Below are positions 6,275 through 10,981 of a stretch of DNA of 10,981 nucleotides, one piece after another. The position numbers and the translations under genes were made by a program. Where the stretch lies: IMG/VR virus record IMGVR_UViG_2778261688_000005, positions 1 through 10,981 of that record; one strand, written 5' to 3'. Numbering within the stretch: the stretch's first letter is position 1; every line of letters starts with the position of its first letter. The stretch comes from a virus. Lineage: Duplodnaviria; Heunggongvirae; Uroviricota; Caudoviricetes. The notes under the pieces were generated by a model that saw only the letters and a list, made by a program, of their open reading frames with translations, was not told where the DNA came from and made no database searches.

Positions 6275-6535
6275 TTAGTTGCTGTCTTTTTTATATAGCT
6301 CCTTGAGCGTATCAAAGACAATTTTCTTAACCATATCAGATTGTTGTTCTGCCATACGCTCTGCATCGTCAATGTAAACTGATGCAGAGCTTTGTTTATC
6401 CAATGATTCTTCAATCGCTGCAATTATCTCTGAGTTCAGCGACCTGTTATTCATCTTCGCACGCTGCTTAATTTTCGCGTGGAGTTCATGCGGAAGTCTC
6501 AAGTGAAACTGCGCCTCGTCGTATTTGCTGTACAT
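6275..6535 (-). CDS. mnt: Mnt-like ribbon-helix-helix repressor (Arc/Mnt family); the ORF extends to an upstream ATG at 6568, but the internal ATG at 6535 aligns with the P22 Mnt start
   Basis: FHLRLPHELHAKIKQRAKMNNRSLNSEIIAAIEESL matches the RHH region of P22 Mnt as I recall it (HFNFRMPMEVREKLKFRAEANGRSMNSELLQIVQDAL). The C-terminus DDAERMAEQQSDMVKKIVFDTLKELYKK matches the Mnt tetramerisation helix (NDAERLADEQSELVKKMVFDTLKDLYKK). Confidence 0.8.
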   Translation of the reverse strand: MYSKYDEAQFHLRLPHELHAKIKQRAKMNNRSLNSEIIAAIEESLDKQSSASVYIDDAERMAEQQSDMVKKIVFDTLKELYKKDSN

Positions 6536-6608
6536 CCTTGATGCCTCACCAGTTGGGTGGAATGGCATCGTAACCTACTGGATAAATACTCAATAGTACC
6601 ATTTCGGT

Positions 6609-6656: not shown

Positions 6657-8639
6657 ATGTCAGATATCACCGCAAATGTTGTGGTAAGCATGCCTTCGCA
6701 ACTCTTCACTATGGCTCGTTCTTTTAAAGCCGTAGCCAATGGCAAAATTTATATCGGAAAAATTGACACTGACCCGGTAAATCCAGAAAACCAGATCCAG
6801 GTTTATGTGGAGAACGAAGATGGCTCTCATGTTCCTGTTTCGCAACCAATCATCATTAACGCTGCTGGATATCCGGTATATAACGGACAGATTGCCAAGT
6901 TCGTAACTGTGCAAGGCCATTCTATGGCTGTTTATGATGCGTACGGTGCGCAGCAGTTCTATTTTCCTAATGTGCTGAAGTATGACCCGGATCAGCTTGA
7001 GCAGAGGCTCTCTTCTTTTGATGGGCAAAAATATATAGGAGTATGTCCAGACATTGTCACATTACGAACAATAGAGCCAACGGTTGATGGCCAAATGATA
7101 ACTCTTAAGCAACACACAGATGGAACAGGGATTGGTGGTGGTAGATTTCGCGCTGTTTTACATGGTGAATCTTACTCTGATAACAACGGGACTATAGTTA
7201 AAACTGTTGGCGGCTCTGCTTGGTTGCGCATTAATGCTGATGTAGTAAACCCATTGATGTTTGGAGCTTATGGAGACGGTATTACTGATGACACGGAAGC
7301 TGTTAATAATGCAATTGCTTCATCAAGCAATATTGATGGCGTTGCAAACACATACCTTGTATCAGGTAATGGCATACAAATTCAGCATGGTAAAACATTT
7401 AAAAATGCAACAATAACTGAGTCGAAAGCAAGCAATGCCGTTATGCTGAGATTTACAGGTAGTAATTCGGCAATAGAAAACATTATTTTCGATGGTTCCA
7501 ATGGATTAACAAGCAGAGGGGTAATTGTCAACGCTGGTCTTTCTGATATACACATCTACAAATGCAGAGCGACTGACCTTAAAAAACCATTTGTAGGAGT
7601 GTCTGGAGACTATGATAATAATCTTTTCTGTGTTCGAGTAACAATTGAAAAATGTTTCGCCAATAACTGCGGAAATGATGGTACAAATTACGACCGTTCA
7701 ACAATAATATTTGACGGGGTTTCAGGTTGCACTGTAAAAGATTGCTATTTCAGCTCATGCAATTGGGGAATTACTTTCAGACAGCCGTATGACTACCCAG
7801 AGTTAACAAAACCTTATGCGTACTACAACAGAGTTGATGGTTGCTACTTATCCGGGAAGACCGGTTACCCATATAATCAGGGTATCAGCGCGCAAAGCCA
7901 AAAACATTTCTCAGCATCAGGAAACACGATAGAAGGATTTTTAGGTAACGCTATCGATAACCAAAGATGTGACTTTAGTCGCATCGAAAACAATAAACTT
8001 TCATCCGGAGATGATGGTATCTTTTTTGGTGATTTAAACTGCAAGGGCCACGTTGTGACTGGTAACGTGATTACTGGATGTGCAAGGGGTATTAGGGTTT
8101 ACGGTGCCGTTGGAGATTGGGCTAATCAGGCCATGACGGATATCACCATAACCGGTAACATAATAACGGACTCCACCGTAGTAGGCATCTATGTGTACCG
8201 CACGGAGCCGACTAACTCCTTTGCTGGTTTTAACATCACAGAAAATATCATAGACAACTCAGGCACAAGGTCGCTAACCGGCAACACACAAGGCATTCTC
8301 GTAACAGGGTTGTCAGGTGGCGTCGTGTCGAATAACGTTATACGCAATACACGCATGGAAGGGTTAAGGTTCGTTAACTCTGTCGGGGTTGTGGCTGTGG
8401 GTAATTCTGTGACTGGATTCGATTACTCTGCTACGGCGCAAGCTGGTATTTACATCGATGTAACTTCAAGAGGTATACAACTAAGAAATTCAACTGTTTC
8501 ATCTTCAGGTGGTTCAGGTGCAGCAGTTAGAGAAGCGGGCGTTAATAACACGGTCACCGGAACCAGATGGAATGGAGTCACTACTGGGGTTAACTCAACC
8601 GGCACAGGTGCTGTATTGGACGATAACGTTGGATTTTAA
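6657..8639 (+). CDS. Tailspike protein: P22-type head-binding N-terminal domain fused to a right-handed beta-helix (pectate-lyase-like) receptor-binding domain, a putative polysaccharide depolymerase
   Basis: From the ATG at 6657 (GGAG 7 nt upstream) the protein starts [59 protein letters not shown]...VLKYDPDQ, which matches the P22 gp9 N-terminus ([43 protein letters not shown]...). After about residue 115 it diverges into a sequence with a [21 protein letters not shown] motif and repetitive G/N/T/V-rich beta-helix-like segments. The ORF track starts at 6609, but the homology-supported start is 6657. Confidence 0.85.
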
Positions 8640-8641
8640 AA

Positions 8642-8666
8642 AAAGAGCGCCTTGTTGGCGCTCTTT
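8642..8666. terminator. Hairpin terminator between the convergent tailspike and acyltransferase genes
   Basis: AAAGAGCGCC-TTGTT-GGCGCTCTTT gives a 10-bp stem with a 5-nt loop. On the minus strand it is followed by a run of seven T (complement of AAAAAAA at 8638-8644), a strong intrinsic terminator for the acyltransferase transcript. On the plus strand only TTT follows. Confidence 0.6.
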
Positions 8667-8668
8667 AA

Positions 8669-9691
8669 TCACGTTATTATTTTCAATTTATTCTTTATCA
8701 TTATTGGTAAAATTGGTACTATAATTCCGAGAAAAACATACAATATAAATGAGAATTGATTGTATACATTATTTAGCTTCCCATGCTCATGGTTTTCAAA
8801 TCCAAAAAATAGAAATAATAAATTTAACATTGCAAAAACAGATAGATGCCATGACATTATTGTTTTCGAATTGTCTCCTATCATTTTCAATAATCTATTA
8901 TATTTAGATGATAGGATATTGGATATTATTAACACTACAAAGATACATATCAATGATGCTATTGATGTCATAATAAAACCAGATGGGTATGTTGACCATG
9001 CCATTGCACTTTGTTTTATCAATCCAAATGATATCATTGTTCCTGTTATAACTATCAAAATCATTGCTGATATTGGGTTATTTACTGTTAGTGATTGTTT
9101 TTTTAGTGAAAAGCCAAGTAGCATAAACATAGAACCATAAAGTGACTGTGCGGAAACATTATAAATTTGATATCCAGTCTCCTTAAATTTTACTGCGCAT
9201 ATGTTAAGCGCCACAAAGCCAATAATTATTGCAATTATAATTAACGTAATATTTTGGTGTTTAAACTCAGTAGTTACTGAGATTATAATCCTTGATATTA
9301 TTGATGATAAGTAATAAGCAAGCAAAAACCAACAAACAAGAAATAATGGGTTGTTGTGAAAGTTCTTTTCTAGTGGGTTGGTAGTGAACGGTTCGCCAAA
9401 ATACAGTCCTGTAAATTTATTTAGTGTTATTGCTAAAACTCCAGTTAGAATGTACGTAAAAACAATGTATGGGATTATTTTTTTTGATAGTTTTCTCAAT
9501 GCGTTGAACGTAACTATCTCATTTTTTAATGTCAATCCACCAACAAAAAAGAAAAAAGGCATGTGATATAAATACGGATGCATTACATTAAAGAACCCAC
9601 TTGTGTAATGACCTATCACAACAACTATTATGCCGATTGCCTTCATGTAACTTATGGACAAGCTTTGTTCATTGGTAATTTGGTGCATTTT
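8669..9691 (-). CDS. oac: Acyltransferase-3 family integral membrane protein, Oac-like O-antigen acetyltransferase (lysogenic conversion); the ORF extends to an ATG at 9733, but 9691 is the preferred start
   Basis: Polytopic hydrophobic protein of about 340 aa with a conserved His early in the first membrane segment (MKAIGIIVVVIGHY) and an FFFFVGG motif. It sits between tailspike and integrase, as oac does in Sf6 and the gtr genes do in P22. The gene is markedly AT-rich relative to its flanks. The second ATG is preceded by AAGAGA; the first has no Shine-Dalgarno sequence. Confidence 0.75.
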   Translation of the reverse strand, partial: KMHQITNEQSLSISYMKAIGIIVVVIGHYTSGFFNVMHPYLYHMPFFFFVGGLTLKNEIVTFNALRKLSKKIIPYIVFTYILTGVLAITLNKFTGLYFGEPFTTNPLEKNFHNNPLFLVCWFLLAYYLSSIISRIIISVTTEFKHQNITLIIIAIIIGFVALNICAVKFKETGYQIYNVSAQSLYGSMFMLLGFSLKKQSLTVNNPISAMILIVITGTMISFGLIKQSAMAWSTYPSGFIMTSIASLICIFVVLIISNILSSKYNRLLKMIGDNSKTIMSWHLSVFAMLNLLFLFFGFENHEHGKLNNVYNQFSFILYVFLGIIVPILPIMIKNKLKIIT

Positions 9692-9733
9692 TATCTCTTC
9701 ATTTCTATGTGGCAATATTTTCGCAAAAAACAT

Positions 9734-9823
9734 ACGAATGTTAATTTATTAATATACCAATAACATTTGAGTTAGTATGCAATTTTAAAATGTTTGTTCT
9801 ATGTGTGTGCTTTGGATGATATA
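9734..9823 (-). promoter_or_regulatory. AT-rich intergenic region upstream of the acyltransferase gene; likely promoter and possible attP location by synteny
   Basis: The minus strand contains TTGCAT (9777-9782) and an extended -10-like TGGTATATT (about 9751-9759), but the spacing between them is about 20 nt, which is too long. No tRNA-like core is visible. Confidence 0.25.
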
Positions 9824-10981
9824 TCACTCCACCTTTTCATCAAGCCAGTCCGCCCACCACTGCATCATTTCTCTGCGCTTATCTAGATATTGAGCATGGT
9901 TGTAAATCCCGCGCACAGATCCGCCGTTGGCATGTGCCAGTTGCACTTCAATAGCGTCAGCAGGCCATTCGTGCTCGTTCATAATCGTGCTGAATTCATG
10001 CCTGAATCCGTGACCGCTTTCCAGCCCCTCATAGCCGATTTGTTTGATCACAAGTAGCACCGCGTTCTCGCAGATTGGCTTCTTCTTATCGTTACGCCCT
10101 GCAAAAACAAACTCTGATACTGGTTTGGTGATGGAGCTTAACGTAGTGAGAAGTTCAACCACCTGGTCTGACATCGGGACCACATGAATTTTGCGTCCCT
10201 TCATCACATTGGCGTCGATGGTGATAATCCTGTTTTCAAAATCGACGTTCTTCCATAGCATGGAACGAAGCTCTTTTGTTCTGAGGGCTGTGTAGCGTAA
10301 AACTTTGGTCGCAATGAGCGATACGATACTTCCTGAAAATGTTGCCAGTGCTTTGTTAAATGCCGGGATCTGGTCTGCAGGAAGAAACGGGAAGTTCTTC
10401 TTGCGGTATCCTTTCATGGCGTCAGCAAGGTCAGGTGCCGGGTTATATTTAGCCCTGCCGGTGACAATAGCGTAACGGAAAACCTCGCCGCATCTTCTGC
10501 GGGCTTTATTTGCTCGCTCCATTGCGCCGCGATCTTCAAATCTGCGGATTACTTCCAGCAGTTGCATCGGCTCAATATCCTGAATTTCAAGGCCGCCGAT
10601 GATGGGTAAAATGTCGTCATCAAACATTTTGGCAAGTTCAGTTGCATAGCCTACTGACCAGACTTGCTTCTTGTGCTCGTACCATTCCTTGTAAATCGCA
10701 CTAAAGGAATTGTTGTTAGACGAAGCCTTTTTCGCCTTTACCGGATCGATGCCAACCGAGATGTCTTTCCTCGCAGTCCATGCTTTATCCCTTGCCTCTT
10801 GCAAAGTCATAAGCGGATATTTTCCGACGGTCAGGATTTTCTCCTTACCGTCAATCTTGTAGCGAAGCTGCCATACCTTTTTCCCGGATACAGGGACATA
10901 AAGGTACAGGCCATTACCATCGAGAAGGCGGTATGGTTTTTCTTTCGGCTTTGCTGCTTCAATCTGCTTAACGGTGAGCAT
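9824..10981 (-). CDS. int: Tyrosine site-specific integrase, P4-type (arm-binding N-terminal domain plus catalytic domain)
   Basis: 385-aa ORF. The N-terminus LTVKQIEAAKPKEKPYRLLDGNGLYLYVPVSGKKVWQLRYKIDGKE is the typical P4-family arm-binding domain. The C-terminus carries the catalytic residues in HGFRHEFST...LAHANGGSVRGIYNHAQY (R...HxxR...Y). The start ATG is the last codon of the window, so the true N-terminus could lie a few codons further upstream. Confidence 0.9.
   Translation of the reverse strand: MLTVKQIEAAKPKEKPYRLLDGNGLYLYVPVSGKKVWQLRYKIDGKEKILTVGKYPLMTLQEARDKAWTARKDISVGIDPVKAKKASSNNNSFSAIYKEWYEHKKQVWSVGYATELAKMFDDDILPIIGGLEIQDIEPMQLLEVIRRFEDRGAMERANKARRRCGEVFRYAIVTGRAKYNPAPDLADAMKGYRKKNFPFLPADQIPAFNKALATFSGSIVSLIATKVLRYTALRTKELRSMLWKNVDFENRIITIDANVMKGRKIHVVPMSDQVVELLTTLSSITKPVSEFVFAGRNDKKKPICENAVLLVIKQIGYEGLESGHGFRHEFSTIMNEHEWPADAIEVQLAHANGGSVRGIYNHAQYLDKRREMMQWWADWLDEKVE

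Follow-up and report, generated by a model that had tools for sequence, protein, structure and literature searches.

An AT-rich acyltransferase-3 gene convergent with a beta-helix tailspike gene in a P22-like prophage: a candidate for receptor-modifying conversion

In the 10,981-nt stretch of phage DNA analyzed here (hereafter, the window), which comes from a P22-like prophage of E. coli, one AT-rich gene is lodged between the tailspike and integrase genes, which raises the question of what it does for the prophage and its host. The original prediction was that it encodes an Oac-like membrane acyltransferase that modifies the glycan targeted by the tailspike. The acyltransferase-3 (AT3) gene, its family, predicted fold, position, the selection acting on it and its linkage to the tailspike have been established here. 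The answer that we favor, and consider reasonably probable, is that the AT3 of the prophage acylates the surface polysaccharide that the tailspike recognizes, seroconverting and protecting the lysogen, and that it moves as part of a two-gene module. The relevant features are as follows.

6657..7034, plus strand: tailspike N-terminal head-binding domain, a P22/Sf6-type particle anchor (Pfam Head_binding, E-value = 1.7e-67)
7035..8639, plus strand: tailspike receptor-binding beta-helix domain, the partner of AT3 (Pfam Beta_helix and NosD)
8642..8666, no strand assigned: intrinsic-terminator hairpin filling the 29 nt that separate the convergent stops of the tailspike and AT3 genes
8669..9688, minus strand: acyltransferase-3 gene (PF01757), 339 aa, with its TGA stop at 8671-8669
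9689..9823, minus strand: AT-rich (25% GC) 5' region of the AT3 gene, with an SD-like GAAGAG and two candidate promoters
9824..10981, minus strand: integrase IntS (argW-type), the right border of the island (Pfam Phage_integrase and arm-binding domains)

The abrupt AT-rich island that had been predicted was borne out by windowed GC content: positions 8640-9823 have 29.5% GC (0.295), compared with 48.7 ± 4.3% (0.487) in the rest of the window. Values in 300-nt windows are 0.27-0.34 between 8551 and 9900 and 0.42-0.50 on both sides; the minimum-GC 1184-nt stretch of the whole sequence begins at 8623, and the lowest 1184-nt window outside the island has a GC content of 0.402 (mean 0.487, sd 0.043). 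By segment, the GC content is 0.426 in the tailspike gene, 0.296 in the AT3 coding sequence (0.31, 0.30 and 0.28 at the three codon positions), 0.252 in the upstream region 9689-9823 and 0.480 in int. The open-reading-frame list and the Pfam assignment to PF01757 likewise confirmed a lone minus-strand AT3 gene with an AT-rich 5' region, and the flanking tailspike (Head_binding plus beta-helix) and integrase genes match their earlier description. Homology to Sf6, HK620 and others ends inside the tailspike head-binding domain, and that to Sf6 and HK620 returns at about 9823-9831, at the int stop codon. The locus is, in short, a unit of deviant GC content between conserved phage genes that is missing in close relatives and is provided with a terminator, as a moron should be. 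In this copy of the prophage, ISEc22 is inserted in the tail-needle gene.

The sole minus-strand ORF in the island extends over 8669-9733 (354 aa). The start is nevertheless assigned, from sequence comparison, to the ATG at 9688, which gives a protein of 339 aa. A start at 9733 is ruled out by one allele (L008) in which an additional T lying between the ATGs shifts 9733 out of frame; an SD-like GAAGAG lies 6 nt upstream of the ATG at 9688, and a database protein (P0001) with 100% identity is 339 aa long. The gene is real and is under purifying selection, with a dN/dS of about 0.1 (0.10-0.16 when compared with alleles from E. coli, Enterobacter and Hafnia; 0.32, with dS saturated, for the Salmonella homolog), and it is 99.7-100% identical in six prophages that differ in other modules. 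Three plus-strand antisense ORFs (8760-9140, 9378-9566 and 9578-9763) were discounted as by-products of AT-rich sequence, since it is the minus-strand frame that the dN/dS signal favors.

The hairpin at 8642-8666, which the original prediction gave to the AT3 gene as its own terminator, is real, but since it lies between two convergent stops, it is common to both genes and does not belong to the island alone. It folds at -19.8 kcal/mol (z = -5.9), and none of 200 shuffled sequences was as stable. Read on the minus strand, a stem of 10 bp, AAAGAGCGCC/GGCGCUCUUU, is followed by four more U's, making a run of seven; these four (8641-8638) overlap the tailspike stop codon. The annotated oac terminator of Sf6 occupies the equivalent place. 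A consensus terminator scanner did not report the hairpin, and a search of the island for RNA elements in Rfam gave only sub-threshold matches, all of them over the hairpin (STnc420, 25.9 bits against a gathering score of 70). Upstream of the gene, positions 9689-9823 are conserved at 98.5-100% in every E. coli carrier, also where the AT3 allele is the divergent one. The AT3 promoter is represented by consensus candidates only, namely two putative sigma-70-like sites at 9744->9717 (with an extended -10) and 9843->9816; promoter candidates were not enriched over shuffled sequence (10 found, 8.4 expected).

The protein matched Pfam Acyl_transf_3 (PF01757) with an E-value of 1.4e-15 and 57.7 bits (cut-off, 31), over residues 26-340 (numbered on the 354-aa ORF) and across positions 3-321 of the 326-position profile. 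This is its only Pfam domain, so that the protein is a standalone AT3, and the same domain was found in all of its relatives. About ten transmembrane helices are predicted: the AF2 model (pLDDT 85.8, pTM 0.88) has 10 long helices, at residues 6-26, 38-52, 61-93, 114-138, 145-171, 174-194, 205-220, 237-259, 265-294 and 311-338. The longer loop between TMH3 and TMH4, predicted to be extracytoplasmic, is present in the model as 20 non-helical residues (94-113), of which F101, N109, N112 and N113 are nearly invariant across the subfamily. The top PDB match in Foldseek was the acetyl-CoA-dependent transmembrane acetyltransferase HGSNAT (human, with CoA; probability 0.99, but E-value = 0.087 and TM 0.46), and HGSNAT and the AT3 proteins are placed in one fold superfamily (PMC12423673). 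By sequence, no solved structure was found in the PDB. The protein belongs to no family in PHROG, NCBIfam or PADLOC and matched no defense-system model, its viral structural relatives in BFVD amounted to one weak match to an unnamed 637-aa protein, and an OpgC-like function was ruled out because there was no profile similarity.

In the first transmembrane helix, K16-X10-H27 is invariant in all 22 subfamily sequences, and in Oac and WecH an Arg and a His align with K16 and H27, respectively. The TMH1 motif of AT3 proteins has been given as R/K-X10-H with an essential His, so that the Lys variant is allowed (PMC9558356); elsewhere it is written R-X10-H, and an acetyl-CoA pore involving the TM1 His has been proposed (PMC9833829). 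In OafB the essential residues of the TMH1 motif are Arg14 and His25. The RXXR motif at the cytoplasmic face of TMH3 was not found in the window protein, which reads R65-K66-L-S68-K69-K70; in the hhalign alignment with Oac, only R65 pairs with R73, and R75 and R76 of Oac face L67 and S68. These columns are unconserved in the subfamily, except for a mostly basic residue at 66. Since RXXR is reported to be essential in Oac and OafB, its absence means that the donor may be handled differently.

How far, then, is the protein Oac-like? The label holds for the Pfam family and the genomic slot but not for the sequence: BLASTP against Oac gave an E-value of 0.018 over 35 residues and hhalign a probability of 25% over 72 columns, and we regard this as no recognizable homology. 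The predicted oac position, in contrast, is the actual one, the order in Sf6 being tailspike, terminator, oac (on the opposite strand), promoter and int.

The AT3 belongs, judging from sequence searches, to a small AT-rich subfamily of Enterobacterales and Aeromonas that is mostly prophage-borne, and this lineage, which has no characterized member, was previously unstudied. Among 50,697 phage records, including Sf6, Sf101 and SfII, tblastn found no relative (the best match had an E-value of 2e-4 over a third of the protein, and SfII an E-value of 1); plasmids and isolated phages gave nothing past marginal matches, and megablast did not find the AT3 DNA in any of 5,426 complete E. coli RefSeq genomes. 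Subfamily genes are AT-rich in every examined host (GC 0.30-0.40, with surroundings of 0.45-0.61), so that the composition of the island is no evidence for recent import into this prophage. In Hafnia there is a tandem AT3 pair adjoining cas genes, in Cronobacter and one other genome the gene lies in chromosomal islets, and an Aeromonas P2-like prophage has it flanked by the baseplate-spike (V-like) gene on one side and the tail-completion (S-like) gene on the other. The idea of a low-GC donor, for instance Campylobacter, was rejected, because the 'C. jejuni' homolog (P0021) lies among Enterobacterales-type genes on a 2.06-Mb contig, in an assembly that is probably mislabeled; murJ and a glutaredoxin 2 (grxB-like) gene are among the genes of that contig. 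Several database members of the AT3 cluster are truncated fragments; such entries are often flagged 'partial', which suggests contig-end artefacts.

Subfamily members are repeatedly found convergent with a beta-helix tailspike gene, and in all 10 of the E. coli loci read it is the same one. The tailspike gene is called at 660 aa in all related loci, and its head-binding domain aligns with the start of the Sf6 and P22 tailspike structures. In an Enterobacter prophage whose baseplate is of the myovirus type (L026), the tailspike has a receptor-binding domain 48% identical to that of the window over 541 aa (BLASTP E-value = 2e-167), and the gene convergent with it encodes, once more, an AT3, which is 50% identical. 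Since the receptor-binding domain and AT3 are found there together, the functional and mobile unit would be the two-gene pair; the 'single-gene island' of the original prediction is thus correct for composition and incorrect for inheritance, the AT3 gene moving with the receptor-binding domain. An Enterobacter prophage remnant retains AT3 together with tailspike fragments, and in a Salmonella P22-like prophage the 3' end of a 39%-identical AT3 overlaps a different tailspike gene. The C-terminal third of the tailspike varies (about 60-75% nucleotide identity) while AT3 stays 100% identical, so the co-variation is not strict. Among isolated phages, the best tailspike match was 36%, and the closest are Enterobacter phages with no stated receptor.

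What we propose about donor and acceptor, about expression in lysogens and about an exclusion phenotype is inferred. AT3 would be expressed from the prophage as an inner-membrane enzyme, and an acyl group, most probably acetyl supplied by acetyl-CoA in the cytoplasm, would pass through its transmembrane pore onto a hydroxyl of the surface polysaccharide that the neighboring tailspike binds and cleaves. The acceptor would most probably be the O-antigen repeat unit, modified in the periplasm before ligation to lipid A-core. The acylated glycan would be a poorer substrate for the cognate tailspike, and the lysogen would be seroconverted and shielded from phages with the same receptor-binding domain; AT3 and that domain would form a convergent two-gene module with one common terminator, moving between prophages. 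In Sf6, acetylation by Oac blocks the endorhamnosidase (PMC9558356). The predicted protection of lysogens through receptor modification is consistent with the genomic context, and the glycan need not be O-antigen.

The same logic could apply to another polymer, AT3 acylating the capsule (K antigen), colanic acid or enterobacterial common antigen and the tailspike being specific for that glycan, and we consider this fairly unlikely. Of the known AT3 proteins that were compared, the one with the longest alignment to the subfamily profile is WecH (250 columns, 21% identity by hhalign), an acetyltransferase of enterobacterial common antigen; this counts against O-antigen, although the hhalign probability is 39%. 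The best PHROG of the tailspike is labeled colanic-acid degradation, but that label applies largely to the N-terminal part, which is conserved. The slot between tailspike and int in the P22-like phage CUS-3 holds the capsule O-acetyltransferase NeuO. On the other hand, most characterized P22-like tailspikes with a head-binding domain, such as those of Sf6, P22 and HK620, target O-antigen.

Two further readings dispense with the receptor. AT3 as a host-fitness moron, acylating an envelope glycan or lipid in the service of immune evasion, antimicrobial resistance or colonization from a permissive site at the prophage end, would account for the lone chromosomal islets and the P2-like copy away from any tailspike; such members outside prophages or away from tailspikes count against receptor masking. 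The gap between tailspike and int is also a general moron site with unrelated cargo, and AT3 proteins act on many substrates (PMC9558356). A permissive site alone, however, predicts neither the joint transfer of a receptor-binding domain and an AT3 that have diverged equally (48% and 50%) between unrelated morphotypes nor the retention of AT3 with tailspike fragments in the Enterobacter remnant, and we regard this reading as improbable. That AT3 is a passenger without current function, silent or in decay, its AT-rich DNA being xenogeneically silenced in a defective prophage, seems very improbable: a GC content of 30% may be typical of H-NS-silenced DNA, and the ISEc22 insertion and the truncated cluster members could be signs of decay, but the ORF is intact, is identical across mosaic prophages with a dN/dS of about 0.1 and belongs to a subfamily in which the catalytic K and H are invariant, and many of the truncated entries may be the contig-end artefacts mentioned above.

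Acylation of the tailspike's own glycan thus remains our preferred reading. A bolder extension of it, possible but doubtful at present, is that receptor-binding domain and AT3 form a portable 'recognize-and-mask' cassette whose two parts co-diverge while hopping between podovirus- and myovirus-type prophages across genera, the AT3 lineage being a dedicated receptor-masking family. The traits of that lineage are the invariant K-X10-H, the lack of RXXR and AT-richness in every host. If the extension were true, the lineage would have its own acceptor chemistry, and possibly its own donor chemistry, and tailspike-AT3 pairs could be used to predict pairs of glycan receptor and modification from sequence.

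Glycan acetylation by prophages alters serotype, vaccine epitopes and phage susceptibility. Because the present lineage is uncharacterized and missing from the phage isolates searched, predictions of serotype or of phage-host range based on homology to Oac, Gtr or OafA would miss it as a conversion gene, which could help to explain strains that resist phages or depolymerases expected to match their O-antigen cluster. The repeated pairing of AT3 with a beta-helix tailspike offers a concrete, testable enzyme-substrate pair. Conversion genes beside tailspike genes have been known for a long time, so that what this case adds is a new member of the family and a clear instance of module co-transfer, and no new mechanism.

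Among known systems, Oac (OacA of Sf6, with the related phage-borne OacB/Oac1b) is the nearest in arrangement. Both are standalone AT3 proteins of 333-339 aa with about 10 TM helices, and both genes are convergent with the tailspike gene and upstream of int in Sf6/HK620-type P22-like prophages at argW, as AT-rich transcription units of their own with a terminator squeezed behind the tailspike stop; the backbone flanking both sides is 96% identical to that of Sf6. The proteins differ in that the hhalign profile alignment is limited to TM1-TM3, Lys replaces Arg in the TM1 motif and RXXR of Oac (R73/R75/R76) has no conserved counterpart; moreover, the partner tailspike domain is unrelated to the Sf6 endorhamnosidase, without any match past the head-binding domain. 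WecH (YiaH), the enterobacterial common antigen O-acetyltransferase of E. coli K-12, is likewise a standalone AT3 of similar length, with which the TM1 basic residue and His, (M/V)P(L/F)FF(F/M), a WF motif and a late His (H281) line up, but it has the canonical Arg in TM1 and is encoded by a chromosomal housekeeping gene, neither prophage-borne nor tailspike-linked. OafA and OafB (GtrC family II) of Salmonella share the AT3 membrane domain and the proposed acetyl-CoA pore mechanism, and OafB-type genes also lie on prophages or islands and alter phage susceptibility; no sequence similarity to OafA or OafB appeared in the searches run, and unlike the AT3-SGNH proteins (OafA, OafB and OatA), the window protein stops after TM10, without the 11th helix and the C-terminal periplasmic SGNH domain. 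The slot between tailspike and int elsewhere carries a second AT3 lineage (E. coli mip270_04), gtr-type glucosyltransferases and an esterase. The gtr enzymes and NeuO belong to families other than AT3, and the mip270_04 AT3 is related to Oac (E-value = 1e-8) and not detectably to the window AT3 (hhalign probability 2%); yet the mip270_04 AT3, the gtr cargo and NeuO share with the window gene the integration site, the flanking genes and a presumed role in receptor-modifying conversion.

The window represents the right arm of a P22-like prophage of the Sf6/HK620 type, and carries the following features (assignments marked Pfam are Pfam-based).

1–1647: end of an IS66-family element, ISEc22 (GC 0.56–0.62)
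homologs of P22 gp14, gp7, gp20 and gp16 (Pfam)
6275–6568, minus strand: Arc/Mnt-type ribbon-helix-helix repressor gene of the immI region (Pfam), directly upstream of the tailspike gene
tailspike gene, with head-binding domain and beta-helix (Pfam)
8642–8666: terminator hairpin
8669–9688, minus strand: acyltransferase-3 (AT3) gene
IntS integrase gene, int (Pfam)

The ejection genes and int are 96% identical to those of Sf6. Across all phage records, Sf6 and HK620 included, homology stops inside the tailspike head-binding domain, and returns, for Sf6, HK620 and others, at about 9823–9831, the int stop codon. In Sf6 the same interval is annotated with oac, which lies on the opposite strand, and with its terminator and promoter, and therefore the AT3 gene lies in the classical conversion-gene slot, the moron position to which the original prediction had assigned it. 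In other E. coli prophages, the cargo of this slot comprises gtr-type glucosyltransferase, esterase and other AT3 genes. The ISEc22 copy, 99.7% identical to many in E. coli, interrupts the tail-needle (gp26) gene about 100 bp short of its 3' end. An otherwise 99.98% identical prophage (L007) has an intact needle gene at this site; the prophage copy in the window is probably unable to make infectious virions, and still keeps AT3 intact. Carriers that are otherwise alike differ in the content of the immI region, where some have antirepressor or HNH genes.

In 300-nt windows, GC is 0.27–0.34 between 8551 and 9900, against 0.42–0.49 in the 3' half of the tailspike gene, and is back at 0.45–0.50 in the integrase gene (whole genes: tailspike 0.426, int 0.480). 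The island at 8640–9823 has a GC of 0.295, the lowest-GC 1184-nt stretch of the window starts at 8623, and 1184-nt stretches outside the island have a mean of 0.487 (sd 0.043) and a minimum of 0.402; the abrupt AT-rich break after the tailspike, with recovery at int, is thus confirmed. All three codon positions of the AT3 coding sequence (GC 0.296) are low (0.31, 0.30 and 0.28), and the 5' region at 9689–9823 is at 0.252. Because every member of the AT3 subfamily is AT-rich relative to its own surroundings (0.30–0.40 vs 0.45–0.61), the low GC is a trait of the lineage and not a sign of recent arrival in the prophage.

The hairpin, which a simple consensus terminator scanner missed, folds at −19.8 kcal/mol (z = −5.9; none of 200 shuffles was equally stable) and has four further U's after its stem on the minus strand. 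Since it fills the entire 29-nt gap between the convergent stop codons of the tailspike and AT3 genes, it is a terminator common to both, probably bidirectional, and not AT3's own as had been supposed. The hairpin coincides with a match at 8614–8673 to the Salmonella sRNA STnc420 that falls below the Rfam threshold (25.9 bits vs a gathering score of 70, E = 0.024) and most likely reflects terminator-like structure only.

The sole long ORF of the island (8669–9733, minus strand, 354 aa) matches Pfam Acyl_transf_3 at 57.7 bits (cut-off 31), in agreement with the single minus-strand acyltransferase-3 gene predicted. Its start is the second ATG, at 9688, giving 339 aa, because the 100% identical database protein P0001 has 339 aa, GAAGAG lies 6 nt upstream of this ATG, and a divergent allele (L008), otherwise identical to the window around this site, carries one more T in the run of T's separating the two ATGs, which puts the upstream one out of frame; the 354-aa start at 9733 is rejected. 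The AlphaFold2 model (built on 22 relatives) has a pLDDT of 85.8 and a pTM of 0.88, and the predicted structure agrees with the published 10-TMH architecture of AT3 proteins and the long TMH3–4 loop of Oac (PMC9833829). There is no SGNH domain, and the protein is a standalone AT3. Its top structural match is human HGSNAT with CoA (probability 0.99, TM 0.46, E = 0.087), which a 2025 paper groups with the AT3 proteins into a single fold superfamily (PMC12423673); no AT3 structure was found in the PDB by sequence. Residues invariant across the subfamily include K16, H27, H42, P44, F46-F47, G51, W120-F121 and H281. Among these, K16-X10-H27 is the counterpart of the essential TM1 motif, given as R-X10-H (PMC9833829) or R/K-X10-H (PMC9558356), and its two residues line up with an Arg and a His in both Oac and WecH, while the second canonical motif, RXXR in TMH3, is absent as such from the window protein and unconserved in the subfamily.

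The description "Oac-like" fits the slot and the Acyl_transf_3 family but not the sequence: BLASTP against Sf6 Oac gave only E = 0.018 over 35 residues, and profile alignment a probability of 25% over TM1–3 only, and in practical terms the protein is not an Oac homolog. The same-slot AT3 of E. coli mip270_04 shows homology to Oac (E = 1e-8), and no relationship was found between it and the window AT3. The furthest-aligning known AT3 tested was WecH (250 columns, 21% identity, probability 39%); OpgC gave no alignment, and none of the PHROG, NCBIfam and PADLOC models matched. A tblastn search of 50,697 phage records found nothing at E 1e-5 and, at E 5, marginal matches to uncultured gut phages (26% identity), the SfII acyltransferase (E = 1) and a Bacillus phage (E = 2e-4, covering one third of the protein); a plasmid search gave one marginal match. 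None of 5,426 complete E. coli genomes has the island DNA; the protein occurs in about 24 draft contigs of E. coli, and an 86% allele (P0002) in about 12. A profile search recovered about 50 protein clusters at E < 1e-68, from E. coli, Enterobacter, Hafnia, Salmonella, Cronobacter, Pantoea and Aeromonas, none of the subfamily clusters bearing a functional name; after a few short fragments came, at about 1e-38, anonymous "fucose 4-O-acetylase-like" metagenome proteins. An assembly labelled Campylobacter jejuni (L027, GCA_901482455.1) has a 51% homolog as a lone chromosomal islet on a 2.06-Mb contig, with Enterobacterales-type neighbours (murJ, a YceM-like GFO/IDH/MocA-type oxidoreductase, a grxB-like glutaredoxin 2 and MFS transporters), and is probably mislabelled or contaminated.

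Single-gene in composition, with one long ORF, the island is not so in inheritance. When the window was compared with E. coli carriers in sliding 100-nt blocks, the central beta-helix (about 7000–8000) was 93–100% identical in most blocks (lowest 74%) in all carriers. The C-terminal third of the tailspike (about 8000–8600) is variable, at about 60–75% nucleotide identity in two loci (L002 and L004) with a 100% identical AT3, and may mark either a hot spot of recombination or a tailspike segment undergoing diversification. The P0002 allele (L008–L011), which has the same slot and a related tailspike, has 99–100% identity to the window between about 9300 and int, that is, over the first ~130 codons (the 5' third of AT3) and the 135-bp upstream region, and only 71–77% identity over 8500–9300 (the rest of AT3 and the tailspike 3' end), where it resembles the Enterobacter type; it is a recombinant with a junction at about 9300 inside AT3. 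In Enterobacter cloacae, a prophage encoding baseplate-J, wedge and sheath-initiator proteins has a 50% homolog in convergent orientation to a tailspike of 790 aa; the C-terminal 541 residues of this tailspike are 48% identical to the window receptor-binding domain (E = 2e-167), with an unrelated N-terminus, so that domain and AT3 have diverged equally from the window (48% and 50%). Together, the sliding comparison and this pair show that receptor-binding domain and AT3 remain neighbours in both inheritance and exchange, across different types of phage.

Other contexts vary. In the E. coli loci read, the P0001 allele is always convergent with the same tailspike, whereas the immI, gp16 and gp20 modules differ, and most of these prophages lie at argW. 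In L003 (GCA_030204535.1, 9464–10000), the same pair, 98.9% identical, lies beside bioA/ybhB and not argW, with int reduced to its last 84 bp; the locus is either a rearrangement or the end of a prophage located elsewhere in the chromosome. An 82% homolog in E. cloacae sits in the remains of a prophage, next to fragments of holin and lysozyme genes; its locus is homologous to the window at the nucleotide level from AT3 into the tailspike 3' end (8515–8639), and again over another tailspike fragment (7869–8105). In Salmonella (serovar Minnesota is one of the record names), a 39% homolog overlaps at its 3' end with the gene for a P22-like tailspike of 790 aa; the receptor-binding parts of this tailspike and the window tailspike are unrelated. 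In Aeromonas, the homolog is carried as a moron by a P2-like prophage, with the baseplate-spike (V-like) gene on one side and the tail-completion (S-like) gene on the other.

The linkage of AT3 to the beta-helix domain is physical and repeated. In Sf6, acetylation by Oac impedes the endorhamnosidase of the phage and confers immunity to superinfection (PMC9558356), and in the mechanistic model of AT3 proteins acetyl-CoA enters a pore lined with basic residues, with a His at the periplasmic face (PMC9833829). From these two precedents we infer that the protein probably acetylates the polysaccharide recognised by the adjacent tailspike, most likely O-antigen; the lysogen would thereby be converted, and phages with the same receptor-binding domain excluded. 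The main alternative, that the same logic applies to a different polymer (capsule, colanic acid or enterobacterial common antigen), is considerably less likely. The Hafnia alvei homolog (60%; L020–L022) is chromosomal, directly beside a type I-F CRISPR-Cas operon and in tandem, translationally coupled, with a second, unrelated AT3 gene (361 aa), both at about 30% GC, and the Cronobacter homolog is a lone chromosomal islet. Such settings speak for a fitness function unrelated to the receptor, which nevertheless seems less likely still. The gene is constrained and intact, with dN/dS of 0.10 against the 86% allele, 0.11 against an Enterobacter allele and 0.16 against the Hafnia homolog, and three differences from L004, all synonymous; that it is a silent passenger is quite improbable. 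Acetylation of the tailspike receptor is the reading we prefer.

In short, the kind of system is already known, an AT3 conversion gene adjoining the tailspike of a temperate phage being a textbook arrangement. What is new is an enzyme lineage without a characterised member, undetectable by similarity to Oac, departing from the RXXR motif, absent from the sequenced phage isolates searched and rare in E. coli, together with clear evidence that it and its tailspike domain move jointly between prophages of the podovirus and myovirus types.
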